From contig CM059432.1 in NCBI GenBank assembly GCA_030390025.1, positions 31,250,001 through 31,314,000 of the forward strand: DNA of 64,000 nucleotides. Reading direction: 5' to 3'. This DNA comes from Squalus acanthias (Eukaryota). The stretch's first letter is position 1. Every line of letters starts with the position of its first letter. The notes under the pieces were generated by a model. The model did no database searches. It saw only the letters and a list, made by a program, of their open reading frames with translations, and was not told the DNA's origin. The position numbers and the translations under genes were made by a program. Shown one piece after another: positions 154 to 55,248 of this stretch.

Positions 154-1913
154 GGGGGTGGAATTGGGCTTGTTAGCGCCTGTTTTTTGGGCTCTACGAG
201 GCCCCTTAAGGTTCCAAAATGGCATCCATGGTGCGCGCACACACTTCAGGCGTGCAGTGTGCCAGACACCATATTGGTAAAGGGCTCCACGCACCAGCCT
301 ACAGCTTCTCTTAACCTCCCACAGCTGAACACACGTTCAATGGCATGAAGGATCCCCCACCAGCACTATTTAAAAGGATCATCAAATAATTACAGGTTAG
401 TTGCTGGATTGTTTCTTCTGGCTGTTGCAGCAATTCTACACATTTTGGGTGCATTTCCATACTTGTTAAAAGTTTCAATAATCTACAGGTCTGGCTGGTG
501 CTGAAGTACTTTTTTGATGACTTAAAGGCTTGTGCACAAATTAGTTGCTTCCAGACATGGGTGGCCTAGTACAGCTTCCTCTTAGTATTAGCTTGACTGA
601 AAGAATGAGCAGATGCCACGCAGAGTAGGACAAGCTGCTAGAAGAGGGAGAAGGAGGAGGGGGGGGGAAAAGGGCTCTCAGCAGGAGGCCATATCCGCAG
701 AGCAGATCTGTTGGAGAACAGGTTGCAAGATTGCTGTGACGCCCTGGAAGCCCCTTTGTACCCTGGTAGCCAAAGCCATGATGGCAGCAGTCTGAGGTTT
801 CATGGCAGCAAGCTGAGATTGCATGGCAGCAGTCTGAGTTTCCACTGCACCATTCAGACATTGGGTGGCTTCTGCTTGTGCTGCAGTAGAAGCTGAGACA
901 TTAGCCATCAGGCGCTGCATCATGGTTGGCTTCACAGGTGTGTTGATAGAGGTGGCTACCTGTTCCATGTTGAAAAAAATGGGCTCCAAGCTCGGTGCAA
1001 AGCCCTGTGCCAAGTTGGTGCTGGACTCCTCCATGCTCCTTGACATTGAACGCAGTCCTTCTGGCAGGCTTTCCAGTGCACCAAGCATTTGGGTGTGTAC
1101 ACCCATCAGCCTTCTCCTGTAGCCTGGCCTATCGACGTCAACATCTGCAGCAGAACTAGTGTGCAACCTCGCCCTCTAACAAGCTTGCACCTGCGCTATC
1201 CTTTCCCCCAGACCTGGCTCCAGCGCACTTGTGCAGATCCCACCTCCATGCTATCCTTTAAATTACGTGCAGTGTCAGTATCTGAGCTGGTGGCTGCAAC
1301 CGTGCAATCGGGTGGCAGTGTGTCTTAATCTTCACTGTCTTCTTGCTCTTCCTCCACTGCCTGGGTAGGTTCCAGTTCTTGGGTATCTAAAAGGGAAAAG
1401 GGACAAGGGTAGGGTTGTGGTGAGGGGAGAGGAGAAAGTAAGGAGTGCATGCTTACACCACCAGCACTTCTCAGTCCGAAGAGATGTTGGATGAGGGAGA
1501 AGTGCGATGAGAGAAGGGGGATTAGGTATAAGGATACCGTCATCTTCAATGACTCCAATCCCACTGGTGGCCACGGCCTCAGCAATGGCCCTTCCCATAA
1601 TGGCCAGCACTGTCTCCTCCTTGGGAAGTCAGAACATGCAGCGGCACCTCTCCCCCTCCGGTTAGTTCCGGATTTTTCCAGTTGCGCGCCACCTTCTCCT
1701 GCAAGAGAAAGGGAAGAGTATCAGTCGTGCAGGCTAACTTTAAGAAGTGCAAGTTACTAACGATATTGGCCCCCCTGTTGCTGCGTACAGCCAATGAACA
1801 GTGCAGGAAGTGCTGGCGGCATGCAGAAATCATTATAATGAGCAGGCAGCACGAAGTTGGTGATGCGCGATTAACCCACGCCTGGTTTTGGGGGCTAACC
1901 AATTTATAGCCCC
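154..1913. mobile_element. Internally deleted, non-autonomous PIF/Harbinger element
   Basis: Termini GGGGGTGGAATTGG...CCAATTTATAGCCCC resemble the ends of the full element at 21994-26141. The + strand keeps only a degraded transposase start (about 558-700, RRGRRRR...ALSRRPYP). The - strand keeps Myb-partner exon 2/3 remnants (ORFs 1332-1610 and 678-1166, GVHTQMLGALESLPEGL). It interrupts a CR1 3' tail. Confidence 0.8.
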
Positions 1914-6850: not shown

Positions 6851-6859
6851 AGTCCCATG

Positions 6860-6972
6860 AGGGAAAGATTGGGTTGATTTGCGCCTCTCGTTAGCGCCCC
6901 TAGGGGCCGCTAATGGGGGCGCAAATCCCCTAGCGCCCGGGTGCAGCACCGCTAATGCCTTCCACGAAATTC
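6860..6972 (+). mobile_element. Harbinger left-end fragment
   Basis: GGGGAAAGATTGGGTTGATTTGCGCCTCTCGTTAGCGCC closely matches the left end of the full element (21994-22080). Confidence 0.7.
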
Positions 6973-7652
6973 AGCATTTAGAATTACAAAGATTCACGAC
7001 CCTCTGAGAGAAGAAATTCCTCCTCATCTCTGTCTTAAATGGGCGACCCCTTATTCTGAAACTATGCCCCCTAGTTCTAGATTCCCCCACGAGGGGAAAC
7101 ATCCTCTCAGCATCTACCCTGTCAAGCCCTCTCACAATCTTATATGTTTCAATAAGATCACCTCTCATTCTTCTAAACTCCAATGAGTATAGGCCCAACC
7201 TGCTCAACCTTTCCTCATAGGACAACCCCTTCATCCCAGGAATCAACCAAGTGAACCTTCTCTGAACTGCCTCCAATGCAAGTATATCCCTCCTTAAATA
7301 AGGGGACCAAAACTGTACGTAGTACTCCAGGTGTGGTCTCACCAACGCCCTGTACAGTTGTAGCAAGACTTCCCTACTTTTGTACTCCATCCCCCTTGCA
7401 ATAAAGGCCAACATTCCATTTGCCTTCCCAATTACCTGCTGTAGCTGCATGCTAACGTTTTGTATTTCATGTACGAGGACACCCAGATCCCGCTGTACCG
7501 CAGCATTCTGTAGTCTCCCTCCATTTAAATAATATTTTGCTTTTCTATTCTTCCTACCAAAGTGGATAACCTCACATTATCCCACGTTATACTCCATCTG
7601 CCAAATTTTTGCCCATTCACTTAACCTATCTATATCACTTTGCAGACTCTTT

Positions 7653-9163
7653 GGCCGCGATTTTGCCAGCGCTCAGAGGACGGGTTTGGAGGCGGGTCAG
7701 AGGTTAAAGTAGTTTTGATTGACGGCGGGTTCCGCACCCGCCGTCAACCCACCTCCACACAACCTTCCCAAGCGTCGGGTCCCCGATTTGCGAATGGACC
7801 CGACACCTAGCGGCAGGAAACGGATTAAAGGCAATTAACTGCCTATTAACAGGTACTTGTGAGCAGTTTTCAGGGTCTTTTTTGATTTTCCAGTTTCTGG
7901 GTCGGGTTTCACGGCATCCGGACAACACGCCAGGTAAGTATGGCGTGTTGTGAGTCTGGTCTGATGTTTCTGAAAAGATGACAGCTACAGAAGTGGTGTC
8001 AAGGATGCAATGTTGCATATGGTGAGTTTCAGAGCAAAGAAAATGTTGGTTACTGCATTTTTAATACATATACAGATTTCTTTAGCTTACAAGTTTTTAA
8101 ATCCAACTGTATGTCCAATGCCACCTCATTGGGAGAACCTCTCTCACCAGTGACAGATCACTTCTGTCATCTCACCTGCAGCTGCCATCTATTCCAGCAA
8201 CATCAGAGCCAATGAAACAATCAGAACTTGGTCCTCCGAATCCATCCACAATCATCCCCAACACCAACCTCATCATCAACCTTCGCCGCCATCACCTGAT
8301 GCTGCACTGGACACAGGGCATCAGCCCCTGACAAAATTGCTGGCCGGGAGGCCAGTGATGGCATCACCATGGCCAGACTTTCTTCACTTGATGCTGTAAA
8401 CCCTGGCTGCCACATGATGCGCCAGGTTGACACCATCCCACACCAGCACCATGAGGCAGGGGGTGGCGGGGGGAGTTATGACTGAACAATCACTGGAACT
8501 CAGTAAGTCACTTCTCAATGTGCGCTCAGATCTGTCCAATAAGGGGCACTTTTTGAAAAAGATATTTCACTGTATGACAACACATTACCAGAAACTTCAC
8601 ATGGACATTGGCTAAACCTCTCAAGTGCCCACCCTTGTGTGTTGTTAGTTGGTATGCTTGCAGTAGAATGAAGGTGAGTCTGAGAGGTGGCTAGTGAGAT
8701 GGGGAAGTGATAAAGTGATGGAGAGTTTTGGGTGGAGGTGCAAGGTAAGTTGGTGTCCTGGGGAGGTCTCTTCCACCCTTGGAAGGGAAGAGAACCTCCC
8801 TGCATACTGTGACTCCCTCCATAAACATATGGAGGGAGTCATTGGAGAGCCTGGGAGCAAGAGTTCACCTTTGTGCAGTGATTGTCAGTGTTTTCAGCAA
8901 CTCAATACTGTCAAACACTGAAAAATCAACTGTCAAAATAAAATTGTGCATGGTCCCTTTAAGGAAACTAGCAGATGACGCGTCATCAAATGACGTCATC
9001 AGACCCGCTTCCTGTCACTTGGCCGGTAAGCCTGCAGGGCGGGCTTAACAAGGCCAATCATGGGAAAATCACGTCTGTAGAGCGGAGGTAGCTGGGAACG
9101 GGACTGGAACCCGGAAATCAGCTGACGCGCACCCATCCCGACACCGAGGAGAAAATCGCGGCC
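7653..9163. mobile_element. Non-autonomous DNA transposon, probable second Harbinger family
   Basis: Perfect 12-bp TIR GGCCGCGATTTT...AAAATCGCGGCC. It splits the CR1 sequence GCAGACTCTTT|GTGTCCTCCTCACA. The interior resembles Myb-gene intron and promoter segments seen at 27220-27445 and 59400-59700. Confidence 0.75.
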
Positions 9164-9900
9164 TAAGTGTCCTCCTCACAACTTGCTTTCCCACCTATCT
9201 TTGTATCATCAGCAAATTTGGCTACAGTACACTCGGTCCCTTCATCCAAGTCATTAATATAGATTGTAAATAGTTGCGGCCCCAGCACTGATCCCTGTGG
9301 CACCCCACTAGTTATAGTTTGCCAACCTGAAAATGACCCATTTATCCCGACTCTCTGTTTTCTGTTAGTTAGCCAATCCCCTATCCATGCCAATATATTA
9401 CCCCCAACCCCGTGCACTCTTATCTTGTGCAGTAACCTTTTATGTGGCACCTTATCGAATGCCTTCTGGAAATCCAAATACACTACATCTACTGGTTCCC
9501 CTTTATCCACCCTGCTTGTTACATCCTCAAAGAACTCTACTAGATTTGTCAAACACGATTTCCCTTTCATAAAACCATGTTGACTCTGCTTGATTTTATT
9601 ATGATTTTCTAAATGTCCTGCTACTACTTCCTTAATAATAAATTCCAGCATTTTCCCAATGACAGATGTTAGGCTATCAGCCTATAGTTTCCTGCTTTCT
9701 GTCTCCTCCTTTCTTGAATATGGGCGTTACATTTGCGGTTTTCCAATCCGCTGGGACCTTTCCAGTGTCTAGGAAATTTTGGAAGATTACAACCAATGCA
9801 TCCACTATCTCTGCAGCCACTTCTTTTAAGACCCTAGGATGCAAGCCATCAGGTACAGGGGACTTGTCAGCCTTCAGTCCCATTAGTTTGCCTAGTACTT

Positions 9901-10164
9901 AGTTTAGAAGGGATTTGAGGGGAAATTTCTTCACCCAGAGGGTTGTGGGGGTCTGCAACTCATTGCCTGAAAGGGTGGTAGAGGCAGGAACCCTAACCAC
10001 ATTTAAAAAGTACTTGGATGTGCACTCGGGATGCTCTAACCTGCAGGGTTACGGACCAAGAGCTGGGAAGTGAGATTAGGCTGGATAACTCTTTGTTGGC
10101 CGGCGTGGACACGATGGGCCGAAATGGCCTCCTTCTGTGCTGTAACTTTCTATGATTCTATGAT
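9901..10164 (+). mobile_element. CR1 3' end fragment inserted antisense into an older CR1
   Basis: Highly similar to 54988-55247. Ends in TTTCTATGATTCTATGA. Confidence 0.85.
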
Positions 10165-11142
10165 ACTTTTTTCTCCAGTGATAGTGATTGTTTTACGTTC
10201 CTCCCTCCCTTTTGCCCCTTGATTTAACTCTATTATTGGAAAGCTTTTAGTGTCTTCTACCATGAAGACTGATACAAAATATTTGTTCAAAGTCTCTTTC
10301 ATTTCCCTATTTCCCATTATTAATTCCCCAGTCTCATCCTCTAATGGACCAACGTTTACTTTAGCTACTCTCTTCCTTTTTATATACTTGTAGAAGCTGT
10401 TACTGTCTGTTTTATATTTCTTGCTAGTTTACTCTCCTAATCTATTTTCTCCCTCTTTAATTTTTTTTTCATCCTTTGCAAGTTTCTGAACATTTTCCAA
10501 TCTTCTGCCCTACCACTAATCTTCGCAACATTGTATGCCTTTTCTTTCAATTTGAAACCCTCCTTAACTTCCTTAGTAAGCCACGGATGGTTCATCCTTC
10601 TCATAGAGTCTTTCTTTCTCACTGGAATATATCTTTGTTGCCCCCTGGTCCTAGACTCTCCAACCAGCAGAAATAGTTTTTCTCTATCTACTCTATCAGT
10701 TCTCCTTAATACCTTGATGTCAATCAAATCACGCCTTAACCTTCTAAATTCCAAGGAATGCAACTCTACTTTATGTAATCTCTCCTCGTAATTTAACCCT
10801 TGGGGTCCAGGTAACATTCTGGTAAATCAACGCTACACTCCCTCCAAGGCCAATATATCCTTCCTAAGAGTGGTGCCCAGACCTACTCATAATAACATAA
10901 GAACTATGAGCAGGAGTAAGCCACATGGCCCCTCAAGCATTCAATAAGATCTTGGCTGATCTTCGACCTCAACTCCACTTTCCTGCCCTATCCCCATATC
11001 CCTTACTTCCTCTGGAGTCCAAAAATCTATCTATCTCAGCCTTGAATATACTCATGATGTGGAGATGCCGGCGTTGGACTGGGGTGGACAAAAATGAGAA
11101 GTCGCACAACACCAGGTTATAGTCCAACAGATTTATTTAATT

Positions 11143-11181
11143 TTACAAGCTTTCGGAACAGTTCGCTCCTTCGTCAGGTAA
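11143..11181 (-). ncRNA. Minimal hammerhead ribozyme motif (left arm)
   Basis: Reverse complement of 11390-11428. Confidence 0.7.
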
Positions 11182-11389
11182 GTTAGCAGTGAGAGAATCT
11201 CCCAGAATTCACAATTTAAACACAGACAAAATATATTCAAATCTTTCCTACATCAAAGAGCACAGCCAAGACAATGACCCCCTGGGACACATCTCATTGT
11301 CTTGGCTGTGCTCTTTGATGTAGGAAAGATTTGAATATATTTTGTCTGTGTTTAAATTGTGAATTCTGGGAGATTCTCTCACTGCTAAC

Positions 11390-11428
11390 TTACCTGACGA
11401 AGGAGCGAACTGTTCCGAAAGCTTGTAA
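11390..11428 (+). ncRNA. Minimal hammerhead ribozyme motif (right arm)
   Basis: TTAC-CTGACGA-A-GGAGC-GAACT-GTTCC-GAAA-GC-TT-GTAA. Stem I is UUAC/GUAA, stem II is GGAGC/GUUCC, stem III is the palindrome AGCU, and the triplet is CUU. Confidence 0.7.
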
Positions 11429-12789
11429 AATTAAATAAATCTGTTGGACTATAACCTGGTGTTGTGCGACTTCTCATTTTTGAATATACTCAACAACTGA
11501 GCATCCACAGCACGTTGGGCATAGAATTCCAAAGATTCACAACCCTCTGAGTGAAGAAATAACTCCTCATCTCAGTCATTAAAGGCCGACCCCTTATCCT
11601 GAGGCTATGCCCCCTAGTTCTAGACTCTCCAGCCAGGGGAAACAATCTCTCAGCATTTCCTCTGTCAATCCCCCCTCAGAATCTTATATGTTTCAATGAG
11701 ATCACCTCTCATTCTTCTAAATTCCAGAGTGTATAGGCCCAATCTACTGAATCTCTCCTCATAGGACAACCCTCTCATCCCAGGGATCAATCTAGTGAAC
11801 CTTTGTTGTACCGCCTCTAAGGCAAGTATATCTTTCCTTAAATAAGGAGACCAAAACTATGCACTGTACTCCAGGTGTGGTCTCACCAGAGCCCTGTACA
11901 ATTATAGCAGGACTTCCTTACTCTTGTACTCCAACCCTCTAGCAATAAAGGCCAACATGCAATTTGCCTTCCTAATTGCTTGCTGTACCTGCATGCTAGC
12001 TTTCTGTGTTTCTTGTACTAAGACACCCAAATCTCTCTGAACACCAACATTTAATAGTTTTTCACCATTTAAAAAATATTCTGTTTTTCTATTCTTCCTA
12101 CCAAAGTGAATAACCTCACATTTCCCCACATTATACTCCATCTGCCACATTATTGCCCATTCACCTAGCCTGTCTATATCCTTTTGCAGGCTATTTGCGT
12201 CCTCCTCACATCTTACTTTTCCACCTAGCTTTGTATCATCAGCAAACTTGGATACATTGCACTCGGTCCTTTCATCTAAGTTATTAATATAGGTTGTAAA
12301 TAGCTGAGCCTCAATCACTGATCTTTGCGGCACCCCACTAGATACAGCCTGCCAATCTGAAAATGACCCATTTATTCCTACTCTCTGTTTTCTGTCTGTT
12401 AACAAATCCTTTATCCATGCTAATGCCTTACCCCCAACCCCATGTGCCATTATCTTGCTTAACAACCTTTTATGTGGCACCTTATCGAATGCCTTTTGGA
12501 AATCCAAATATACTACATCCACTGGTTCCCCTTTATCTACCCTGCTAGTTACATCCTCAAAAAACTCTACTAAATTTGTCAAACATGATTTACCTTTCAT
12601 AAAACCATGTTGACTCTGCCTAATCATATTATGATTTTCTAAGTACCCTGTTACCACTTACTTAATAATGGATTCCAGCATTTTCCCGACAACTGATGTC
12701 AGGCTAACTGGCCTGTTGTTCCCGGTTTTCTCTCTCCCTCCTTTCTTGAATAGCGGGGTTACATTTGCTACCTTCCAATATGTCGGACA

Positions 12790-13184
12790 GGATCAGGGGG
12801 CGTTCTGCAGCCGCGGCGGCGCTACATAAAGGGCAGGTGTCGGGTGGCCATTCATATTTTGGCCGACTACCAGCACCTGCCACTTTCCCTTTCCCCAGTG
12901 GTCTGGCAGAGCCCCGGTGCATGCAGCGCTAGACCTCTCCCCTTTAATCAGGGGAGGAGGCCTGCAATGACGCGGCGCTACATGCTGTCGCACATGGCGC
13001 TGTTGTACATAGCGCCGTGAACTTCAGTAGTAGCGCCCCAAGAAGGAGGTGGAGCACTTCCACCTCCTGCTTGGGGTGCTACTACTGAATTTCCGGCAGA
13101 GGGGCGCTAACTTTTTCGGGGCGCTTAAATTAGCGCCCTGGCGATGTTAGCACCTCAAAAGGGGCGCCACTCAATTTTCCCCCC
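12790..13184. mobile_element. Harbinger terminal fragment
   Basis: GC-rich, with repeated TAGCGCC/GGCGCTA motifs. Ends CTCAATTTTCCCCCC, whose reverse complement matches the GGGGGAAAAATT TIR. Confidence 0.7.
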
Positions 13185-16232: not shown

Positions 16233-17846
16233 GAGGCCGCAAAATTCGGGGGTGTAGCGCAGGCCATTAAGGCCGGTTTTGCTGAAAAAATGGCGGCCAC
16301 CTCGCTTCCGCCCATTTTTGGTGCGGAACATGGCAGCCGCCATTTTGGGGAGGTCGTTAGCGCTGCCAATGCTGCATTCACCTCCCACAGCAAATATGCA
16401 TCAAATAAATCAAATATACATCAAATATGCAGATCGTGTCATCAATCGGTATGCAATGCCTAAATTGACACACTACTGTGATTTTGGACATTGCTGCTCT
16501 GGATACCGCCCTCTCCAAACCACGCACGGAAGAACGTGCGTGCAGCAGTACTACAGAGATGCTGCCAGTGCTTCTTAAAGTGACACACACATCTTTCAGG
16601 TAAATTTCAATTTCAGCTTTTGGACTGATTTATTTTTACATTTTTATTGGAGTAGTGGCTTGGTGCAATACATTTAAAATGTTGTTAAAGTTTGCAGCGA
16701 ATGTAGGGAGTGCTGCCGGACGCTTGCAAGGCTTTTGATGTCAAAGGAAGGCCTCTGAGAACACCACTTGCTCACAGTTCTGGGGGCTCTAGTTGCAGTC
16801 TCTCTTGGGCTTCAACATCACATGGAGATGAAGCAGAGATAACAAAGGGGACAAGCTGCTCGTATAGGGAAGAGGAGGACGTAGAGGGGGAAGAAGCTGA
16901 AGAGGAAAATTCAGAAGAGGAGGAAGCGTCAGGAGGGTGGCAACCCAGACAGCCCCTTTCTGGCCGGGATATCCAGGATCAAATCATCCGCCTGTGGTAC
17001 CAGTGAACACAACTCCAATTCCCCTTTCAGCATTAGTCCCACACCTTATCTTCCCTCTGTTACTGACCATCACAGTGTCCTCTTGGCCACATTGCTGAAA
17101 TAAAAGCCACCACAAAGCAAACTTTCAAATCACCCAAATTCATATTACATCAAAAAATCAACTAATCACCCTTGTGCATTCCCTTAGTGACTGTCTTGCG
17201 TGTGCCTTTGCCTATCCTAGTAATGTCATGCAGTGCTACCCCAGTGGCTGCAGCATGGCTGGTGGAAGGCTGCTGACTTTCAGTGGGGGACACTGTAGAT
17301 GGCCTTGCAGGACGACCTCGAGGAGTTGGTGGCTGGGAGTTCATCTTCTTCTTATTCTTATTCTTCTTCCTTGTACATCAGAAGAGATTGCGGGATGAGG
17401 GAGAAGTGGGATGTGAGAAGGAGGATAATGTATGAGGATACCAGCATCTGGTATTCTTTCAGCCCCGCCGCTAGCCACGGGCTCAGCCATGCCCCTGCCA
17501 AGAATGGCCAGCACCGACTCCTCCAAGGGTGTAAGGTGAAGCTAGGAATGTGTGGTGTGCCTCGTGTTTGGTAGAGATTGTTAGTGATGGGGGGATTGTG
17601 CATTGAGCAGAATAGCCAAAGTTTTTGTCAGTTTCCCTGATTTGACAGATTACACTGATTGCTGGCTGTGTGGGGGGGGGTTGGGGGAGGGGGGAACAGC
17701 GCAGTCAGTATCAGAGCAGTGAATGACTGACCGTAACTTCAGGATTTCCGCGTTACAATGCGCATGCTCTACATCCTGAAGTTGTGGTCAGTTTCAAAGG
17801 GGTAAAGACAGCGAACGTTGTTATTACCCATCGCAAATTCTGGGCC
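16233..17846. mobile_element. Heavily deleted Harbinger derivative
   Basis: Ends GAGGCCGCAAAATT...AATTCTGGGCC. The + strand has an acidic transposase-like C-terminal tail (EEEDVEGEEAEEE...DQIIRLWYQ). The - strand has Myb-partner exon 2 (EESVLAILGRGMAEPVASGG) and its C-terminus (QQPSTSHAAATG). Confidence 0.75.
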
Positions 17847-19985: not shown

Positions 19986-20906
19986 GGGGGGTGAAATTGG
20001 ATTAGGCCCGAAAACAAGCGCGGGGATCGTGATGCACAATCGGCCTGTGCCCGTTGAAAGGAGTGCAGGCAGCACGTAAAATTCGTGCTGTATGTTAATT
20101 ATAATGATAGCAGAACACAGTCCATCGCTGAGCACACAGCTGACTGTGCGCTCAGCAGGGGGCTGAAGTTCGCGATGTTCACGCGAGGCTAGCTTGACTT
20201 AAAGCTAACCTGTGTCTCTTAAAGGCACTCTGCACCTCTTAAAGGTAAGCTGCCTTCTGGTGATGAAAATTTTTATAACTGCTTCAGCATAAATCAAAAT
20301 GGCTCAACAGGCCTGGGAAAGGGCACCCAGGGACGGGGACACAACACTCGCGGCCTTGGGTGAGTCAACACTCGAAGAGAGGTTCTCTACCAACATGGGG
20401 CCAGGAAGCCCTCCAGAAACACTAAGAAGGATGTGGGACCAGATCGTTGAGGCGATCACTGTCAGCAGTGTCACCCCCAGGACGTGGCTCCAGTGCCCAA
20501 AGAAATTTAATGATCTCAGACGAGTGGTCAAGGTCAGTGAATGCACCTTCAAAAGCCATCTCCTACCAACTGTACCACTAGCCTCACACACTGCTCAGTG
20601 CATGACACCCCATCACTCACTTACCAACAGTTTCTACCAAACACGAGGCACACCTCACATTCCTAGCTTTACCTCACTCTCACACTCTTACCACTTCCTC
20701 ACACCCACATCACATAGCTTGAACACTCTGTCAATTATTCAACCATGACAGCCACATCACCCAAACACATTTCACCACACTCTTGTAGGAATGGGGTAGC
20801 ACATAACCGGAACCAACAGAACTTAACCGGTGAGGGTCAGGCTCGCCTGCATCACCTCACCCCCTTGGACAAGACGATGCTGGCCATTCTTAACAGGAGC
20901 ATGGCT
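19986..20906 (+). mobile_element. Older Harbinger derivative with Myb/SANT gene exons 1-2 (continues at 26483-26578)
   Basis: End GGGGGTGAAATTGG. ORF 20299 reads MAQQAWERAPR...WDQIVEAITVSSVTPRTWLQCPKKFNDLRRVVK followed by a GTCAGT donor. Exon 2 ...LAILNRSMA resumes as DPMASSGAERIQD at 26483. Confidence 0.8.
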
Positions 20907-22302
20907 TGAAAGGATTATTACTAGTCCTAGCCCTTTTCGGGCCTCCCCAGATCAGGCGTACTCCCCTGACGTTCACCTTCAACTAAAGTTAGAGGCAGCT
21001 GGATCCTAAAGATGCTTAATTGGGTCTAAAGGTCCAGACTATCTCTCCCTAAAGGAAAGGAACAACCTGAAGATGTTACCGTCCTCCAGATAGCACTTTT
21101 AATAAGTTTAGCTAGACTGTAACCTTCCGGATATTATGAGGGTCCGGAAAACTCCTTCAGAATTCTGCAACTCTTCACCAAAGAGTGTACAGAGATTGAG
21201 TTTGCGAGTTTGATACAGAAGTACTATGTGAGACAATTCTAAAAAAATACAGATTTATTAAAGAACCGACATGTAGTTTCCAGCTGGTGATTCAATTGCA
21301 ACTTTAACAATTCCAAAAACAAAAAGCTTACAATTCTTATCATCAGAGATCCTTATTCTCAAATCTTAACTGCATTACATTTTTACATTTCTTACTTAGT
21401 CTTATTCCAGAATATCCACCAAAATCAAATACCTTTGATCCCCGAGACTTAAAGAGTTGAAAACTTAGAGCTTGCCTCTGAAGTCTGAGAATTCTGTGAA
21501 TTCTGTGAACTGCTTTGCCCCTTCCAGCGAATTCTGTCTTCCCATTTGAAAATTCTATATTTATACCCTTTCTCAGTGGTATATCCTTTGTAGTTTTCTG
21601 TTGATGTAAGCTAATTATCTCTAGTCATTTTTCTGTTGACCCCTGCTATTCTTACAGTTTGTTCAGCTTGTAGCATTCAGACTCGTGCCTCTACCTTTAG
21701 GTGTTTCTAGCTTATCATAAAAAACAGTTGTAACAGATGTATCTATTTGATGCCATTCTTAGCAAGGTCTTCTGTTTAATTCTTAAGTCACCTCAGCTGG
21801 TTTCAACACAGACTTCGTGTCTCCTAGGTGTTCTAAGTTCAACACAAAAACAATGTGATGGCAGTGGTTCTATTGATGTCATATTTATGAAAGTCTTCTG
21901 TTTGTATCTTTTTACAACATGTAAATTAAAAACACTTCAACTGGGTACACCATTGTCCTCCTAGCCACCTCAACTGGTTGCATTAAGAATTATGGGGGAA
22001 AAATTCAGTTGGTTGCGCCTCCCGTTAGCGCCTTAAGAGGGCGCTAATGGGGCGTTAAGGCGCTAACGCCCGGGCGCAGCGCTGTTTGCGCCGCTCGAGA
22101 ACTTAACTTGAGATTGTGCGGCGGCGCTAAAACTTACCGCTGCGACCACCTGCGCGCGCAGATTGTGACGTCATTCCATGGTGCAACGCCCTTGGGGCGC
22201 CCCGGAGCAGAAATTGAGTGGCGCCCCCTGCCTTACCGCCTGGCGCTTCCAACGACCGGAAGACTGGAACGTTATCAATCGGTGTGGGGCTGGGGGGGGC
22301 GC

Positions 22303-22310
22303 TATTTAAA
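22303..22310 (+). promoter_or_regulatory. Putative TATA box of the transposase gene
   Basis: TATTTAAA about 200 bp upstream of the ATG. The same CTATTTAAA lies upstream of the transposase remnant in the 154-1913 copy. Confidence 0.45.
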
Positions 22311-22505
22311 GGGGGCCTCTTCCTGTCTTTTTCTGTGGTCGACATTTATGCACCACTCGTTCTGAGAGAGAGAGAGAGATTCGGAGAGAGAGAGAGAGAG
22401 ACTTCTACATTGACTCAACGCTTTGTGAGGTAGTTTGGCCTAGTTCATCCTAACTTTGCTGCTACTTTAGTTGCTGTACCTCATTACTTTTCTGGCAAAG
22501 AGAAT

Positions 22506-23666
22506 ATGGGGGCTGCAATGATTGGGGGCGTCGTCCTGCTCCAGCTCAATCGGAGGATAGTGAGATGCAGACAGAGAGTGGCAATGATGGCCAGACGGAG
22601 GAGGGCCATCAGGCGCATGTACAGGAGAGCTTACCCTCCCAGGGTATATCGTGAACAGCTCTCCTACATCCATATGTCCGAGGAGCTGTGTTTGCGAAGG
22701 CTGCGATTCAGCAAGGAGGTGGTCACTGAGCTCTGCCACCTGCTGCAGCCAGATCTGCAGCCTCAGCTGAGGTCCAGGACGTCTCTGTCGGTGGCAGTGA
22801 AGGTCACAGTGGCTTTGAACTTCTACGCCACTGGCTCATTCCAAGCTGCTGTTGGGGACCTCGCCAATATCTCCCAGTTTGCGGTGCATCGCTGCATCCG
22901 GCAGGTCACCAATGCCCTCTTCAGAAGGAGACGAGACTTCATCTCTTTCCCTATGACCCCAGACAAGCAGCATGACTGTGCTATGGGCTTTGCGAGGGTA
23001 GCGGGCTTCCCCATGGTGCAGGGCGCCATTGACTGCACGCATGTGGCTTTGCGTGCTCCGCGAGAGAATGCAGAGGAGTTCCGGAACAGAAAGGGGTTCC
23101 ATTCCTTGAATGTGCAGTTGGTCTGTGACCACAGACAGGTGATTCTCGCTGTCAATGCCCACTATCCGGGCAGCTGCCACGATGCTTTCATCCTGTGCCA
23201 GAGTACTGTGGCAGAAATTTTCGAGGCACCGCATCAGCCAGTTGGTTGGCTTCTGGGGGACAAGGGGTACGCATTGAGCACCTGGCTGATGACACCGCTC
23301 CGTGCGCCAAACACCCCTGCTGAGCTGCGGTACCAGGAAAGCCAACAAGCAACCAGGAACATTATTGAGCGCACAATCGGCGTGCTGAAACAACGATTCC
23401 GCTGTCTGGACCATTCCGGAGGAGCCCTGCAGTACTCGCCTGAGCAAGTTTCGAAATTCGTAGTCATGTGCTGCATGTTGCACAACATGGCAATCCTCAG
23501 GACGCAGCCAATGCCACCAGGCCTTGCAGCACCACAAGAGGAGGAGGAGGAAGAGGAGGAACAGGACGAGGACGATGATCAGCAGCAGCACCAAGGCAGG
23601 AGGGCGGCCCACAATGGTCAAACTGCAAGGGCCGTCCGTCAACGACTAATAGCAAGCCGCTTCTAG
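22506..23666 (+). CDS. Harbinger transposase (HARBI1-like, DDE_Tnp_4 family), intact 386 aa
   Basis: Motifs RLRFSKE, LNFYATGSFQ, GFPMVQGAIDCTH, NRKGFHSLNVQLVCD, PGSCHDAFI, LLGDKGY, RNIIERTIGVLKQRFRCL and CCMLHN. Acidic C-terminal tail. No stops. Confidence 0.95.
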   Translation: MGAAMIGGVVLLQLNRRIVRCRQRVAMMARRRRAIRRMYRRAYPPRVYREQLSYIHMSEELCLRRLRFSKEVVTELCHLLQPDLQPQLRSRTSLSVAVKVTVALNFYATGSFQAAVGDLANISQFAVHRCIRQVTNALFRRRRDFISFPMTPDKQHDCAMGFARVAGFPMVQGAIDCTHVALRAPRENAEEFRNRKGFHSLNVQLVCDHRQVILAVNAHYPGSCHDAFILCQSTVAEIFEAPHQPVGWLLGDKGYALSTWLMTPLRAPNTPAELRYQESQQATRNIIERTIGVLKQRFRCLDHSGGALQYSPEQVSKFVVMCCMLHNMAILRTQPMPPGLAAPQEEEEEEEEQDEDDDQQQHQGRRAAHNGQTARAVRQRLIASRF

Positions 23667-23960
23667 GGCCCCTGCCATTGCTACAAACACGAATCAACCC
23701 AGCACGCAACCCCTAAGCCGGCCAAGGCACCAATAATTCCAACCACCAGCCATGTATATTTTGAATACAGAAACTTATTTATTGTACAAACTCTGTGTGT
23801 GTCAATTCCTCATGACAAACTCATAGAAATAAACACAAAAAAACAGTCAATAACATAACTGGTTCTCACAACCTGGAGATAACGTCCAAAACACTAAACA
23901 AAAGTTGGGCCATGAACCTCGGCCTTTAATAAAAAAATGACCAGTATTTTGGCACACCTC

Positions 23961-25784
23961 CTACATTTTGCCCTTCGAGGGTGATCTCCTTCCCTTGCGC
24001 ACTTCCCCCCTTCTAACCCTACTGCTCCTCCGTAATGGGACCTCAGTGGCTGCAGCAAGGCTGGTGGAAGGCTGCTGCTCGTCAGACCCTGACACTGCAG
24101 ATGCCCCTGAAGGACGGCCTCGACCACTTCTGGGCCTGGAGGGCCCGGCTGCAGACTGCACCAACTCTGCATGGGCGGCAGCAGTCTGTCCTACAGGCGG
24201 TGGCAAGTGCAGTGGAGAAGTGACAGTGTTGGCAGCAGGAATGCTGTCATCGTGAGAGAGGACAGCAACTCCCTGCTCGCCCGACACACTGGCACTCCCA
24301 CGGGGCAGCACTTCAGCATCCGGAGCAATTTGCCGGAGAACAGATTGCTGGCCTGCTGCGGCGCGGTGACAGCCCCGGGGACATGTGCACGAACCATCGA
24401 GGATGGCAGCAGTCAGTGCTCGCGTAGCCTCAATCTGAGTCTGCATGAGAGCAGTCTCAGATGGGTTCCTGGCAGCCAGTGACTGAATTGCAGCACTAAG
24501 CTTTAGTGTGGCATCCGCCTGTGCTACAGCGAAGTGCTCCACACTCCTTGCCAGTGCCTCAATGCATTCGGGCACCCTTCCCACTGCACCCATGAGCTCA
24601 GTGTGCATGCCCACCGCCTGGCTGTTCATTTCTGCAATCAGCCGCTCCTCCTCTGCGTCCATTGCAGTAGGAGTGTCTGGCATACTCTCCCTCTGGGGAG
24701 AAGGCTCCCGTTCTTCCCTACCCCCCCCCATGGCGTTGCTGCAGCCCGCTGGGTCCTGGAGCTTCACCATCATCAGCCCCTTCCCCCCTGCTCCCCTCCG
24801 GGGAAGGCGTGTTCCCAGTGTGGCCATGGGCTTCCTCGGGAGAGGGTGGCACTGATGCTCCGGCTTCCTCTTCCTCCTCAGCTGCAGCATCACTCCCAGT
24901 GGCAGCTTCAGGGACCATCTCCTCAGCTGGTGAATCACCATCTGAAAGCAGGGAGGTACAAGAGTGGCTTTAGCGTGAGGACAGGGTGGCAGTAAGGGAG
25001 GAATAAGTGCAGCGAGTTAGCAAGTTGGATTGAAAGTGTCAAAGGCTGGTATTGTGAGGGACAAGTGGAAGGACAGAGGACAAAAAGGTGATGACCTTAC
25101 CATTGCTGTCCACAACGGGGTCAGCGTCCCCAGTGGCGACGGGACCGATCACCCGGCTTGCCACAATCCTGTGGACGCGCTCCTCCAGATCGCTGAGGGG
25201 TTGCAGCTGAAGCCGCCCTCCACCCGTCCGTTGCTGCTGTCTCCGATTATGAGCCAGCTTAGCCTGCAAGAAAAAGGACAGCATCTGAGTAAATATACAG
25301 CCATGGTCTTGCCTGATGTGCCTCCCATAGGTGAATAGCCCTTACAATATGCAGCCATGGTCTTGCCTGATGTGCCTCCCATAGGTGAATAGCCCTTACT
25401 GTATGCAAAGTGTGGAATATGTGTTTGTGTTTGATGAAAGGGCCATAGGTGTTGCATGAGTGTTGTGCATTGGGGTTTTAAGACCCTCTGGCCATATAGT
25501 GAGGTTGAGATGGAGGGATGGAGAGGTATTGAGAAAAAGCCACTCACCCTGACGACCCGAGTGAGGTCGTTGAATTTTTTGCGGCACTGAACATGGGTCC
25601 TGGGCACCATGCTCCTGGAGGAGACGCTCTGAGCCACCTCGCTCCACACTCTTCTGAACTCGCGTGGCAAAGGCCTCCTGCCACTCTCCGGGAACAGCAT
25701 GCATCGTCTGCACTCCACTGCGCCAACCAGAGCATCCAAGGCCCGCTCGGTGAAGCGATGAGCGCGTTCTCTCACCCTCTCCAT
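23961..25784 (-). CDS. Harbinger Myb/SANT-like DNA-binding protein, 3 exons (25784-25548, 25263-25101, 24941-23961), one apparent frameshift at 24721-24729
   Basis: Exon 1 reads MERVRERAHRFTERALDALV...RRVWSEVAQSVSSRSMVPRTHVQCRKKFNDLTR. Introns are GTGAGT...TTGCAG and GTAAGG...TTTCAG. Exon 2 reads AKLAHNRRQQQRTGGG. About 459 aa if one G is removed from the G9 run. Confidence 0.85.
25292..25399. repeat. 54-bp tandem duplication in intron 1 of the Myb gene
   Basis: AATAT(A/G)CAGCCATGGTCTTGCCTGATGTGCCTCCCATAGGTGAATAGCCCTTAC occurs twice. Confidence 0.95.
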
Positions 25785-26578
25785 GCTTGGCAGCAAAATG
25801 GATTACAGGTCTCTCCAGGCTGAGATTCAAGGCTGCAATGAGCAGGGTGTGGCTGGGGAGCAAGTGGCCCCCCCCGCTTTAAGAAGTGTCCGGCGCCAGT
25901 TTGTCTGTGTTCCCTCGCTAACTGGCAGCAGCTGCGCTGCGCTCGTGCGCTGAGGTAGTGCCTCACTCCTAGGCCTTTGCGCCTTAAGAGAGGTGTGCAG
26001 CGCCTAATTTAGCGCTCCACTCACCTCCCGGGGCGGTAAAAGTGAAGTTTCCTGTCAGTGCCGATAATTAGCGCCAGGCGCTAATATTTGCGCTCGGATG
26101 ATATTTGCGCCCCAAATGGGGCGCGACCTAATTTCTACCCCTATGTCTCCTGTCTTTCATTTGATGTCAAATTTACAAAGGCATATGTTTCTTTAATTTA
26201 TGTGATTAATTTTGAAGTGTTGGTTTATAACACTTTAACCAGGGTATGGTATTGTCTTTTTTCTCAAGCTACAGACTTTGGGAACCTCTAACCTTCTGCT
26301 TCAATGAGGCTATTGTTTCAGTGTCAACAACTTATCTTATCTCAAAAGTTTGTATTCTGTTTACAGCTTTTCCTTGTTGAGGCTTTCAGACCTTCAAGCC
26401 CAGTTTGTCATGTTTAATAAAGTCAGAATTCTTTCATAGGATGGTGTATTTTTCTGAAATATGGCGTATTCCTTCACAGGCTGACCCCATGGCCAGCAGC
26501 GGGGCTGAAAGAATACAAGATACCGGTATACTCATGCGTTATCCTCCTTCTCACATCCCACTTCCCCCTCATTCCACA

Positions 26579-27445
26579 GGCCGGGATTTTACTAACCTCG
26601 GCGGGTCAACGGCGGGCGACATCGGTGGCGGGTCCCGACCCCATTGCTGTCTCCATCCCGTTGTCCAAAATTAACTTACCTCAATGGGGTTTGTTAAGCA
26701 ATGGAATACTCTCCACTTGCCTGGATGAGTGCAGCTCCAACAACACTCAAGAAGCTCGACTCCATCCAGAACAAGGCAGCCTGCTTGTTGGCACCCCATC
26801 CACCACCTTAAACATTCACTCACTCCACCACCGGCGTACCGTGGTTGTAGTGTGTACCATCTACAAGATGCACTACAGCAACTCGCCAAGGCTTCTTCGG
26901 CAGCTCCTCCCAAACCCTCGACCTCTTCCACCTAGAAGGACAAGGGCAGCAGGCGCATGGGAACAGCACCATATCCAAGTTCCCCTCCAAGTCACACACC
27001 ATCCTGACTTAGAAGCATATCGCCGATCCTTCATCGTCGCTGGGTCAAAATCCTGGAACTCCCTCCCTAACAGCACTGTGGAAGTACCTTCACCACACGG
27101 ACTGCAGCGGTTCAAGAAGGCGGCTCACCACCACCTTATCAAGGGTAATTAGGGATGGGCAATAAATGTTGGCCTTACCAGCGACGCCCACATCCCATAT
27201 ACGAATTTTTAAAAAAGCCCTCCCAGCGCATTTCCCAGCCAATTAGAGGAAGCGGGTCTGATGACATCATTTGATGACGCGTCATCAGCCGGTTTCCTTA
27301 AAGGGACCATGGCCAGCTTTATTTTGACATTTGTGCTGTCAGTGTTCTATAGCATTGAGATGCTGCAAACACTGACACTGACTGCACAAAGGCACAGGGC
27401 TGCACCCAGGCTCTTCCATGACTCCCTCCATATGCTTACGGGAAG
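26579..27445 (+). mobile_element. Fragment of the 7653-9163 transposon family, interrupted by a LINE
   Basis: Starts GGCCGGGATTTT. 27245-27345 is close to the reverse complement of about 8900-9012 (GATGACGCGTCATC motif). Confidence 0.65.
26700..27215 (+). mobile_element. 3' fragment of a second non-LTR retrotransposon family
   Basis: Encodes MEYSPLAWMSAAPTTLKKL-like RT C-terminus. Tail AGGGATGGGCAATAAATG is shared with 30781 and 47664. Confidence 0.75.
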
Positions 27446-37895: not shown

Positions 37896-38375
37896 AATCA
37901 CAGAATCATACAGCACAGAACGAGAATTATCTATTCTTTATTTGTTGACTTACTGGATGTTCTTTCTGTTGCTGAGTACTGATTTCCTTTGGTGAGCTGG
38001 CCTGTCTTTAGCTGGTCTTTACTTTGCCGGGTCTCACCCAACCACCGGCAGCCCCAAAGTAAACATGCCGGAATCGGTAAGGCTGGCCAGTGGGAAGGTC
38101 TGGGAAAAAGTAGGTTGGGAGTTGGCAGCACAAGTGTGGCACTTTGCTTCCAGGTTTGCCAGTCTTTGCTGAGGATTGCCAGAAGTGTGCCAATATTTAC
38201 AGGTGATTCCCAGGATCGTAGCAATATTTGCAAGGGGTCCCTGGAGTGTGTCAATTTTTGTAAGTTGTCCCCAGGAATTCTTGCAACAGGTCCCTCAGAA
38301 TGTAGCAATATCTGCAGAGGTCCCCAGGAATATGTCAGTATGCAGGGGGTCCGTAGGAGTATCTCAATATTTTCA

Positions 38376-38721
38376 GGTGTCCCTGGAGTGTGCCAATATT
38401 TGAAGGGTGTCCCTGGAGTGTGCCAATATTTGAAGGGTGTCCCTGGAGTGTGCCAATATTTGAAGGGTGTCCCTGGAGTGTGCCAATATTTGAAGGGTGT
38501 CCCTGGAGTGTGCCAATATTTGAAGGGTGTCCCTGGAGTGTGCCAATATTTGAAGGGTGTCCCTGGAGTGTGCCAATATTTGAAGGGTGTCCCTGGAGTG
38601 TGCCAATATTTGAAGGGTGTCCCTGGAGTGTGCCAATATTTGAAGGGTGTCCCTGGAGTGTGCCAATATTTGAAGGGTGTCCCTGGAGTGTGCCAATATT
38701 TGAAGGGTGTCCCTGGAGTGT
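38376..38721. repeat. 30-bp minisatellite, about 11.5 identical units within a degenerate array (about 38180-38980)
   Basis: Unit GGTGTCCCTGGAGTGTGCCAATATTTGAAG. Confidence 0.97.
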
Positions 38722-39059
38722 AACAATATTTGGAGGAGGTTCCCTGGAGTGTATCGGTGTTTGCAGGGGGTCCCTAGAGTGTAACACTATTTGCAGAGGG
38801 TCGTTGGAGTGTATCAATATTTGCAGACATCCCTGGAAGTGTGTTAGTATATTCAAGGGTCCCCAGGAGCATATGAATGCTTACAAGGTATCTCCAGGAG
38901 TGTCTAAATGTTTGCAAATGGTCCCAGATGTTTGCAGGGGGTTGTTGGAAGTACATAGATAGTTGCAGAGGGACCCTGCACAGAAAATCATTGACTTCAA
39001 AGGAGAAAGCAGAAATGATATACACTGAAGGAAAATATCTGAGGCTGCTGCTTCTTTAT

Positions 39060-50450: not shown

Positions 50451-51729
50451 AAATATTATGGGATTGATTTTCTATTGGGGTTCTCCCAATTGGCTGCCAT
50501 GACTTTGTGCATTTTCCCTAGTGAAATAGACAAAATGAATGGCCTGGGAAAACAAGGTTGGAGATTTGGAAACAATCTCCTGCTGTTGCTTGTTTTTTTG
50601 GGCTGGAATCTGGATATTGATGAGAGGAAACACAGGACAGTGAGTTCCATTTATAGTTCATTATGTAAATGCACCACCCGGTGAGGTACTGAGCCACGCA
50701 GAACAGGAAGATCCCAAGCCTGATCTCTGGGCTGCGCTGTATCAGCTAATCTCATCTTCAATGTCTAGAAATTCCTCCATTTATCCCACGGGGTAAGTTT
50801 GACTTTAATTATTGGATAAAAGAATTCAAATCACAAGAACTGCTTTTGTGGCACTTTGTGAATGTTAGAAAACAGAAGTTGAGAATGGAGTCAAAGCACA
50901 CAGAATCATTCAATTCCTAACAATACCCAAAGTACATAGCATCAAATATAATAACTGTGATGTAAATATTTCTTCTTTGGGCTCTGTATTGGTTACTATA
51001 AATATGCATGAGTAATATAAATGACTATCTGTAGCTGTCGGTATATATTAAATATGTATGAGTGTTCATTTATATGGGTGTACATGAGCAACTATTAAAG
51101 GTGGAACATTGGATGTAATATAAAAATCTTCAAAAATATAAGTGAAAAGGCAATCTTGTAACATTTTTCATTTTAGTCCAATTTGCAACAGCCGTGCTCA
51201 GAGAATGCAATGAATCAAGTCTTAATGGGAATCACTGAATGGCATATTGTACGATATATTTCATGCTGTACTATGAATGATGCAATATTTGGGGTCTTCA
51301 CTTCTGCTTCTCAGTAGCCACACTATGGGGAGCTGGGGCAAGTTTAACTCCCAGCGTGCAGGCTGTGCCATTACACAGGGGGCAGCAGCTGTTGGGGTGC
51401 TGAGAGTCTGTGCAGGTGTTGGCCCCGAAACATCTCTTAATGAGGCCAAAACCTCATATTGTCTTTGAAGCTACCGAACAGCACAGCAAATGCTCAGAGC
51501 CCATATAAAACAGGCACTTCATGGGAAGCCCTTCCCATATATTGGGTCCTTTCTCTTAAATTGGACTAATTTATTTGGATTTGCAAATAGTTACTGGGGT
51601 AGAAATTCATCTTGTGCGGTCGCACAAAACGGGCAATATCGTATCTGCCGCCCATTCTATTCCACGCCCCATATTCAGTCCCATTAACTTCCACAGCACT
51701 GAATATCAGGCGGGGAGTATAACAGACTC

Positions 51730-54700
51730 AGGCGGGGGGGAAGAGGCGAAGGAGAGCAATAGTGATAGGGGATTCAATAGTTAGGGGAGCAGACAGGCGT
51801 TTCTGCAGCCGCAGACGTGACTCCAGGATGGTATGTTGTCTCCCTGGTTCCAGGGTCATTGATGTCACTGAACAGCTGCAGGGCATTCTGAGGGGGGAGG
51901 GTGAACAGCCAGAGGTCGTGGTCCATATCGGTATCAATGACATAGGTAGGAAGAGGGATGAGGTCCTGCAGGCAGAGGTTAGGGAGCTAGGGAAGAGGTT
52001 AAAAAGCAGGACCTCAAAGGTAGTAATCTCCGTATTACTACCAGTGCCACGTGCCAGTGAGTACAGAAATAGGAAGATAGAGCAGATGAATGCGTGGCTG
52101 GAGAGATGGTGTAGGAGGGAGGGCTTTAGATTCCTGAGGAATTGGAACCGTTTCTGGGGGAGGTGGGACCTCTACAAGCCAGACGGGTTGCACCTCAATG
52201 GGAACGGTGCCAATATGCTTACGGGAGGGTTTGCTAGTGCTGTTGGGGAGGGTTTAAACTAGCTTGGCAGGGGGATGGGAACCTAAGTATGGAGTCAATA
52301 GGGAGGGAAGAAAAACTGGAATTGGAAAACAAAAACGTCGAAAGTAAATTGGAAGGACAGAGGAATCAAGGGCTAGATAATAGTCAACAAGGAGGTTTGC
52401 CTCTACTAAATGGTATATACTTCAATGCAAGGAGTATAGCGAACAAGGCAGATGAGCTGAGGGCACAGGTAGATACTTGGGACTATGATATTATAGCTAT
52501 TACAGAGACGTGGCTGAAAGAGGGGCAGGTATAGCAGCTCAACATTCCTGGTTACAGGATTTTCAGATGGGATAGAGAGGGCGGTAAAAAGGGAGGGGGG
52601 TTAAAGAAATTATTACAGCTGTGAGTAGGGATGATATGTTGGAGGAATCATCAAACAAGGCCATATGGGTCGAATTGAAAAACAAAAAAGGGGCGATCAC
52701 ACTGCTGGGAGTGTACTACAGACCCCCAAACAGTGAGAGGCAGATAGAAGAAAAAATATGTGGACAAATTTCTGAGAAGTGCAAAAACTATAGGGCAGTA
52801 ATAGTAGGGAATTTCAACTACCCCAATATTAACTGGGATAAAATTAGTGTGAAGGGTATAGAGGTTGCGGAATTCCTAAAATGCATCCAGGAGAACTTTT
52901 TTGCCAGTATGTAGCAAGCCCAACAAGGGAGGGGGTGGTCTGGACTTAGCTTTAGGGAATGAAGCTGGGCAGGTAGAAGGTGTATCAGTGGGGGAGCATT
53001 TTGGTGCTAGTGACCATAATTCTGTTAGATTTAAGGTAGTTATAAAAAAGGACAAGGATAGACTAGGAATAAAAATTCTAAATTGGGGAAAAGCAAATTT
53101 TGCTAAGCTCAGAGGGGATTTAGCCATAGTGGACTGGAAACAGCTACTTGAAGGTAAATCAGTGTCAGAGCAGTGGGAGGTTCAGACCAAATATGTGTCC
53201 TTAAAGAAAAAAGGTGGGACTAACAAATCTAGAGCCCCCTGGATGTCTAGAGACATACAGGGTAGGATAAAGAAAAAAAGGGAGGCGTATGACAGATACC
53301 GAGGGCTAAATACTCCAGAATCTTTAGAGGAGTACAGAAAGTGCAGGGGTGCAATTAAAAAGGATATTAGGAAAGAAAAGAGAGAGCATGAAAAATGCTT
53401 GGCAAGTAAATTCAAGGAAAACCAAAGATGTTTTATAAATATATTAAGAGTAAGAGGATAACTAAAGAAAGGGTAGGGCCTATTCGAGATCATGAGGGTA
53501 ATCTGTGTGTGGAGGCAGGAGACGTCGGTAGGGTTCTTAATGAATACTTTGCATCTGTTTTCACAAAAGAGAGGGGCGAAGCAGACATTGCTATCAGGGG
53601 GGAGGAGTGTGAAATATTAGATGAAATAAACATAGTGAGAGAGGAAGTATTAAGGGGTTTAGCAGCTTTAAAAGTGGATAAATCCCCAGGCCCGGATGAA
53701 ATGTATCCCAGGCTGCTAAGCGAAGCAAAAGAGGAAATAGCAGAGGGCCTGACCATCATTTTTCAATCCTCTCTGGCTTCAGGTGTGGTGCCGGAGGACT
53801 GGAGGACTACTAATGTGGTACCCTTGTTTAAAAAGGGAGAAAAGGATGGACCGAGAAATTACAGGCCAGTCAGCCTCACCTCGGTGGTGGGAAAATTATT
53901 GCAAAGAATTCTGAAGGACAGGATAAATCTTCATTTAGAAAGATACGGATTAATCAAGGATAGTCAGCGCGGATTTGTTAAGGGAAGGTCGTGTCTGACA
54001 AACTTGATTGAATTTTTTGAGGAGGTAACAAGGAGGGTAGATGAGGGTAGTGCGATTGATGTAGGGTATATGGACTTTAGCAAGGCTTTTGATAAGGTTC
54101 CACATGGCAGACTGGTCACAAAATTAAAAGCCATGGGATCCAGGGCAAAGTGTCAAGTTGGATTCAAAACTGGCTCGGAGACAGCAAGCAGAGGGTAATG
54201 GTTGATGGGTGTTTTTGTGACTGAAAGGCTGTTTCCAGTGGGGTTCTGCAGGGCTCAGTACTAGGTCCCTTGCTTTTTGTGGTATATATCAATGATCTAG
54301 ACTTGAATATAGGTAGTATGGTTAAGAAGTTTGCAGATGATACTAAAATCGGCTGTGTGGTTGATACTGAAGAAGGAAGCTGTAGACTGCAGGAAGATAT
54401 CAATAAATTGGTCAGGTGGGCAGAACAGTGGCAAATGGAATTCAATCCGGAGACGTGTGAGGTAATGCATTTGGGGAGGGCTAACAAGGAAAGGGAATAC
54501 ACATGGTCGGACATTGAGTAGTGTCGAGGAACAAAGGGACCTTGGAGTGCATGTCCACAGATCCCTGAAGGTAGCAGGCCAAGTAGATAAGGTGGTTAAG
54601 AAGGCATACAGAATGCTTGCCTTTATTAGCCGTGGCACAGAATACAAGAGCAGGGGGGTTATGCTTCAACTGTATAAAACACTAGTTAGGCCTCAGCTAG

Positions 54701-55248
54701 AGTACTGCGTGCAGTTCTGGTCACCACATTACAGGAAAGATGTAATTGCACTAGAGAGGCTACAGAGGAGATTTACAAGGATGTTGCCGGGCGTAGAGAA
54801 TCTTAGCTATGAGGAAAGACTGGATAGGCTGGGTCTGTTTTCCTTGGAACAGAGGAGGCTGAGGGGAGACCTTATTGAGGTGTATAAAATTATGAGGGGC
54901 ATAGATAACGTGGATAGAACGGACCTATTTCCCTTAGCAGAGGGGTCAAAAACCAAGGGGCACAGATTTAAAGTAATTGGGGTAAGGTTTAGAGGGGATT
55001 TAAGGGGAATTTCTTCACCCAGAGGGTCGTGGGGGTCTGGAACTCACTGCCTGAAAGGGTGGTAGAGGCAGGAACCCTAACCACATTTAAAAAGTACTTG
55101 GATGTGCATTTGGGATGCTCTAACCTGCAGGGCTACGGACCAAGAGCTGGGAAGTGGGATTAGGCTGGATAGCTCTTTGTTGGCCAGCGCGGACTCGATG
55201 GGCCGTAATGGCCTCCTTCTGCGCTGTAACTTTCTATGATTCTATGAT
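51730..55248 (+). mobile_element. Long 5'-truncated CR1/HER1 LINE (ORF1 esterase part, ORF2 endonuclease plus RT, 3' UTR); ORF2 disrupted
   Basis: ORF1 at 51762-52262. Endonuclease motifs YFNARSI, IAITETW, VYYRPP, GNFNYP and SDHN (52289-53461). RT at 53428-55065. Tail TTTCTATGATTCTATGA. Confidence 0.95.

Follow-up and report, generated by a model that had tools for sequence, protein, structure and literature searches.

A full-length two-gene Harbinger-type transposon, probably of a shark, with an open transposase and an apparently frameshifted Myb partner gene

Ends and transposase of the element

Positions 21994-26141 of the window, i.e., the whole analysed stretch of 64,000 nucleotides, hold a Harbinger-type element of 4148 bp that is bordered on both flanks by the trinucleotide TAT and that carries two convergent genes, an intronless transposase gene on the plus strand and a three-exon gene for a Myb partner protein on the minus strand. 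The terminal inverted repeats (TIRs) are short and imperfect, with 10 of 12 letters shared between the left one (21994-22005, plus strand) and the right one (26130-26141, minus strand), each identified by comparison with the opposite end. The two TAT copies of the target site duplication (TSD; 21991-21993 and 26142-26144) were identified by direct comparison and from the joint of an empty site. Ends of this kind together with a 3-bp duplication are expected by chance with a probability of about 6e-7 per end pair, or about 0.02 over the 200x200 = 40,000 candidate pairs. The empty site was found in public sequencing runs (X1, X2, X12, and X19, the last from a second organism, B), which were compared as contigs over a 5.7-kb stretch: contigs from X2 (depth 33.3) and X12 (depth 7.97) join position 21990 to 26142. 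This joint omits 4151 letters, namely the 4148 of the element plus three for one copy of the duplication, and thereby fixes both the element ends and the 3-bp duplication. Both TIRs and the TAT duplication had been proposed in a sequence-only reading of the window and are confirmed here, the former in their short and imperfect form.

The element sits within a degenerate tandem repeat (approximately 21640-21993 and 26142-26330) whose units measure about 130-190 bp and of which the runs contain many copies. Five X12 contigs leave the stretch before 21994 into unlike flanks (agreement 0.55), and further joints, from 21948 and 21985 to approximately 26142-26155, point to paralogous empty sites. 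An insertion polymorphism read from the empty site was dropped as an interpretation, since the flank is a repeat of high depth and the empty site may be a paralog. Two-letter duplications were likewise dropped as candidates for the TSD, since the ends would then become asymmetric.

Just inside the TIRs lie a CpG-rich left subterminal region (22006-22304) with seven TWGCGC motifs and a right one (25785-26129) with six. The two ends of the element thus hold 13 of these motifs and the intervening 3.4 kb only one, while 44 were observed in the whole window versus 20.6 expected, for a pattern that was selected after inspecting the sequence. The motifs may serve as binding sites of the Myb protein. 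A search of 21500-26700 against Rfam yielded no match.

The transposase open reading frame (ORF; 22506-23666, plus strand, 386 codons) is unbroken and matches the DDE_Tnp_4 profile with an E value of 1.2e-36, and the acidic catalytic candidates that had been read from the sequence (GAID, HD, GDKGY, and IER) are all present. Residues D176, D226, D252, and E288 are the majority residues among the transposase homologs; D176, D252, and E288, which we take to be the catalytic triad on the basis of known motifs and of a predicted structure, are jointly retained by 50 of 108 homologs whose sequence spans all three sites. In a predicted structure (predicted local distance difference test score 82), the candidate triad occupies strand, strand-to-helix, and helix positions, and an arginine-rich N-terminal helix is apparent in both the sequence and the model. 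The best fold matches of this model are transposases and integrases (TnsB, piggyBac, integrases), weak matches with a best E of 0.003 and none at E 0.001, and a sequence search of the PDB retrieved no relative (best E 0.051, unrelated). Three residues are unusual: Q277 is N in 105/113 homologs and Q in none, Q280 is H in 96/114, and M321 is V in 73/101 and M in none, the other copies in the contigs also reading V.

A total of 339 proteins match the transposase with E values of 1e-30 or lower, and most of the 120 listed are shark and ray entries annotated as “putative nuclease HARBI1”, and the best of those listed, from Pristiophorus, reaches 65% across 90% of the query. A tree built from the 104 rows (of 121) that have at least 230 of the 291 core columns places the transposase with modest local support among transposon-like copies of Pristiophorus, a position that suggests a shark host lineage. 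The proposal of a two-gene Harbinger-type transposon from a cartilaginous-fish lineage is upheld, for an element that is multi-copy and not domesticated.

The Myb partner gene and its frameshift

The stretch between the convergent stop codons (23667-23960) contains AATAAA on the plus (23828-23833) and on the minus strand (23778-23783) as candidate poly(A) signals. On the minus strand, exon 1 of the partner gene (25548-25784) encodes a Myb/SANT-like domain (Myb_DNA-bind_5, E 3.4e-08), followed by exon 2 (25101-25263) and exon 3 (23961-24941). A protein of the sawshark Pristiophorus, P0126, is colinear with all three exons, with 56% for exon 1 and 58% over 38 residues for exon 2 (E 9e-10). The predicted introns both have GT-AG borders and are supported by homology, P0126 being continuous across intron 2 (24942-25100). 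Intron 1 (25264-25547) also holds a 54-bp tandem duplication (25292-25407, 95% alike). Of the 79 contig joints, 15 were shown and not one of these fits a predicted intron, X12 and X19 being only presumed RNA runs, and one X12 contig spans intron 1 into exon 1; these observations count neither for nor against expression.

When spliced as the sequence stands, the partner reading frame ends after 207 of about 459 residues at a premature stop (24718-24720) directly behind a run of nine C on the plus strand (24721-24729). The first 73 codons of exon 3 continue the frame of exon 2, while the last 252, which comprise a conserved region and a basic tail, lie in another frame that is open throughout; the two remaining frames past the run contain 11 and 6 stops. 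Spliced translation, homology, and contigs all locate a frameshift at 24718-24729. Residues 201-264 of P0126 match exon 3 up to the nine-C run (E 0.003), and residues 266-553 match the other frame past it (E 6e-21). The downstream frame is also matched at E < 0.05 by 6 of 67 Myb relatives, and the lost C-terminal part aligns in 9/9 chosen relatives, loosely in two of them. This homology was obtained via relatives found through the Myb exon: a protein search with the C-terminal frame alone returned nothing at E 0.001, and when the frame was compared directly to Narcine P0122, the match did not go beyond E 0.12.

Contigs from all four runs are without four letters at 24721, by which the frame is opened. 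The shorter run accounts for the entire depth in X12 (220.5/220.5) and X19 (136.7/136.7), with one contig each, and for 102,623/942,264 (11%) in X1 and 58,176/385,354 (15%) in X2, with nine contigs each. Other copies of the family thus appear to keep the partner frame open at the nine-C site. The sequence-only reading had described a complete element with a spliced Myb/SANT partner gene; the domain and the homology-supported introns were borne out, but not the intactness of the gene, which stops at residue 207, and with it the completeness of the element. Since the partner is frameshifted, this copy is likely unable to move by itself. Overall, we consider it probable that a multi-copy Harbinger-type transposon with two genes, likely from a shark, inserted here at full length, and that this copy has an open transposase frame but a frameshifted Myb partner and is likely non-autonomous.

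A difference of four letters from the contigs shown exceeds the usual slip of accurate long reads. Along with the unusual Q277, Q280, and M321 of the transposase and the imperfect ends, this makes it unlikely that the copy is intact and autonomous and that its nine C stem from a homopolymer misassembly. In favour of that reading, the break does fall in a homopolymer, the frame past it stays open over 252 codons as the transposase does over 386, and the element ends are rich in CpG. We find it very unlikely that the frameshift is real but harmless, in which case the copy would be self-mobile through a 207-residue partner still able to bind both the transposase and the element ends. Such a partner would have its Myb domain and exon 2 intact, message decay is not expected for a stop in the last exon, and the arginine-rich N-terminal helix might import the transposase unaided. 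Yet the part that is lost aligns in all of the chosen relatives and ends in a basic tail, and nuclear entry of the zebrafish transposase needs the interaction with the Myb protein (PMC2836001, PMC3016246, PMC9710019).

Copy number, age, and relatives

The numbers of aligned contigs, 39,168 in X1 and 64,509 in X2, with similarities from 99% to below 90%, point to a large family. Summed depth was 236,000-1,400,000 in bins inside the element versus 20,000-45,000 in the nearest flank bins; it does not equal copy number, and hundreds to thousands of copies is a rough reading. Contigs of X19 cover 30/30 bins, and the family is multi-copy in at least two organisms. A domesticated single gene is at odds with many copies in at least two organisms, and the contig evidence largely refutes the explanation that host genes of the HARBI1/NAIF1 kind, domesticated and present as a single-copy pair, occupy the locus. 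We regard this as extremely improbable: several shark and ray relatives do look domesticated, but here the element retains its two ends and the duplication, an empty site and tens of thousands of contigs exist, the transposase groups in the tree among transposon-like copies and apart from the five clades that are conserved across species, the partner gene is broken, and among the matches listed no annotated protein exceeds about 65% over most of its length. Domestication to a single-copy gene, which the sequence-only reading had named as the outcome contrary to its own, was thus not what we found.

The relatives that look domesticated form five clades of shark and ray proteins annotated as “putative nuclease HARBI1” that are 76-92% identical across species, three of which span sharks and rays or distant shark orders (P0005/P0006; P0010/P0014; P0026/P0030/P0065; P0038/P0040; and P0009/P0018/P0019/P0023/P0024/P0032/P0105). 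The catalytic glutamate is absent in 14 of their 16 members. Judging from these sequences, the five clades resemble Harbinger transposases that were domesticated in addition to HARBI1, the only one named on the transposase side in the available text of PMC9392472. A Harbinger-type Myb protein, P0131, and its cluster are at least 90% conserved in Hypanus, Mobula, and Hemitrygon, with several isoforms, and P0131 is a possible domesticated partner protein. In P0008 of Pristiophorus, a Myb domain is fused ahead of a Harbinger transposase, either as a real fusion or as an artefact of gene prediction.

Concerning age, this copy differs from five high-depth X12 contigs at 34 of 1483 letters (2.3%), a figure that omits two low-depth X12 pieces inside the element (14/172 and 16/175 differing). 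Of 344 rows, 40 were shown, 30 of them inside the element, and at 6 of these 30 another letter makes up 98% or more of the depth in X1 as well as in X2. For the epaulette shark, a mutation rate of 7e-10 per site per generation has been reported, with an upper bound of 14.1e-10 (PMC10587355). At this rate, a divergence of 1% corresponds to 7-14 million generations, and the six letters alone to 1-2 million. The insertion is likely recent for a shark repeat yet millions of generations old, an estimate that is inflated by the decay of CpG, by the structure of subfamilies, and by any difference in species between runs and window. The description of the element as young is weak, as this copy is about 2% away from the most abundant contigs and carries letters found in almost none of the others, and it should not be read as a very fresh insertion.

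The ratio of observed to expected CpG reaches 1.14 over the 300 bases at the left end and 0.72 over the 357 at the right end, compared with 0.38-0.39 outside the element. It is 0.40 in exon 3, 0.00 in intron 1, and 0.56 in the whole element. The claim of CpG-rich ends that have not decayed thus holds for the ends themselves but not for the interior, where CpG has decayed.

Further Harbinger-like remnants in the window (693-838, 6861-6947, 13059-13183, 17238-17321, and 20476-20539) are 67-81% alike to the element, and Myb fragments occur at 20413 and 59335. Because they are only 67-81% alike, the remnants are older relatives and not deletion products of this element's family. The element had been proposed as a driver of related deleted elements, which fails for deletion products, whereas cross-mobilisation by a relative is possible given that one of them shares the subterminal TWGCGC clusters. 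One older Harbinger-like element (6859-13183) has ends 78% and 67% like those of the element, CAT/CAA as flanks, and other repeats inside; its ends near 6860 and 13180 carry TWGCGC clusters in common with the 21994-26141 element. Within a LINE-like (long interspersed nuclear element) fragment lies a perfect inverted repeat (11089-11482) with two 189-bp arms that are 100% complementary and a 16-bp loop, which either arose as a fold-back element very recently or is an artefact of the assembly. A 30-bp minisatellite with a perfectly homogeneous core is found at 38286-38916.

Classification, mechanism, and meaning

In the broad sense of PIF/Harbinger (PHIS), the element has both a DDE_Tnp_4 transposase with an acidic triad and a separate Myb/SANT gene, a 3-bp TSD, dispersed multiple copies, and TIRs that begin with A or G (PMC4482050). 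It falls outside the narrow PIF/Harbinger group of Han et al. 2015, which has a TWA duplication, as its TSD is TAT (ATA on the other strand), and the frameshifted partner deprives it of the two intact ORFs asked of a potentially active element (both PMC4482050). We therefore file it as Harbinger-type in the broad sense only. TAT is also outside CWG, TNA, and ANT, but represents one site and hence not the preference of the family. Another element in the window (51596-55313), whose first 12 letters are the same as the right end of the 21994-26141 element, has an ACT duplication, which is a second non-TWA target, and a long repeat inside. The features of domesticated genes, i.e., a single copy, no ends, and an ortholog across species, do not describe the 21994-26141 element.

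Among known systems, zebrafish Harbinger3_DR resembles the element in its two genes (DDE and Myb/SANT), short TIRs starting with G, clustered subterminal motifs, and 3-bp TSD, but its target is CWG, compared with a TAT that is also not TWA (PMC2836001, PMC3016246, PMC9710019). Moreover, Harbinger3_DR is a consensus, whereas the present element is a natural copy known from its sequence, with a partner of about 459 residues if read through, frameshifted as it stands. Its length of 4148 bp may be set beside the roughly 4124 bp that autonomous families of PIF/Harbinger average (PMC4482050). The HARBI1- and Myb-like proteins of elasmobranchs in RefSeq/UniRef (Pristiophorus japonicus, Heptranchias perlo, and others), among which are the 65% transposase match and the colinear P0126, are annotated as genes and not as elements, and none of the matches listed is near-identical. 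Natural two-gene Harbingers of vertebrates are known from the coelacanth, where they are reported to be still accumulating (PMC5381603, PMC9179366), and from teleosts and gar, with transcription in gar, zebrafish, cod, and medaka (PMC9179366), but these represent other lineages and were compared by description only. The domesticated HARBI1/NAIF1 and MSANTD1-4 share the same protein domains as syntenic host genes (PMC9392472), unlike the present element with its ends, target duplication, and many copies.

In the Harbinger family, the Myb protein attaches both to the element ends and to the transposase, which it carries into the nucleus, and the DDE transposase excises the element, usually cleanly, and inserts it with a 3-bp duplication; the transposition of Ping/Pong and Harbinger3_DR depends on the two proteins (PMC2836001, PMC3016246, PMC9710019). 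On the favoured reading of a non-autonomous copy, the element would have inserted into the degenerate tandem repeat, and later slippage would have lengthened the homopolymer in partner exon 3. The resulting 207-residue partner would keep the Myb domain but lose the conserved C-terminal region and basic tail, and would likely fail to recruit or import the transposase. The Myb protein of the Arabidopsis pair HDP1/HDP2 needs its C-terminal part to bind the transposase-like protein (PMC5339849). This copy would then be movable only in trans, with the partner supplied by an intact copy elsewhere. A complex prediction for transposase residues 1-340 and the lost C-terminal partner region, run without alignments, returned an uninformative score of 0.01.

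Several points weigh against the favoured reading. HDP2 is a distant plant protein, and the truncated partner retains the Myb domain and the exon 2 stretch. Partners of 300-400 residues have been described (PMC9710019). Short ones of about 220-300 residues occur in other families, a range that includes the Harbinger3_DR partner. The nine-C run may be an assembly error, as the evidence at this site comes from contigs and not from raw reads of the window's own sample, and X1 and X2 show the shorter run in only 11% and 15% of their depth, the rest being unreadable (short contigs or other lengths, perhaps nine). The runs may also come from other species than the window (best word share 0.68), which would inflate the age. 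Runs of organisms C-F, with word shares of 0.36-0.41, form no part of the evidence.

As it stands, the finding offers little beyond one more Harbinger family. The element is anatomically complete and fills a stated gap, as a 2022 survey reports Harbinger as undetected in the elephant shark and calls for other cartilaginous fish to be examined (PMC9179366). In the shark genome papers retrieved, for the whale shark and grey reef shark, the superfamily appears only as an entry in repeat summaries (PMC8455134, PMC12498223). Our literature search, which covered few subscription journals and neither Repbase nor Dfam, turned up no published account of a full element with two genes from an elasmobranch. 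Caution is due with open frames and with CpG that is still unspent, both being weak signs of youth in sharks. Continuing interest lies in the family rather than in this copy, which is possibly movable in trans. It is conceivable, though we think it rather doubtful, that the family is a living, natural two-component Harbinger of sharks whose intact copies still transpose into a non-TWA target and mobilise defective copies in trans. If intact copies are active, the two-protein mechanism, for which the PDB sequence search found no solved structure, could be studied with them in a vertebrate system that needs no reconstruction. The family would then be a native vertebrate Harbinger in a lineage with mutation rates among the lowest of vertebrates, and a source of insertional variation where point mutations are few.

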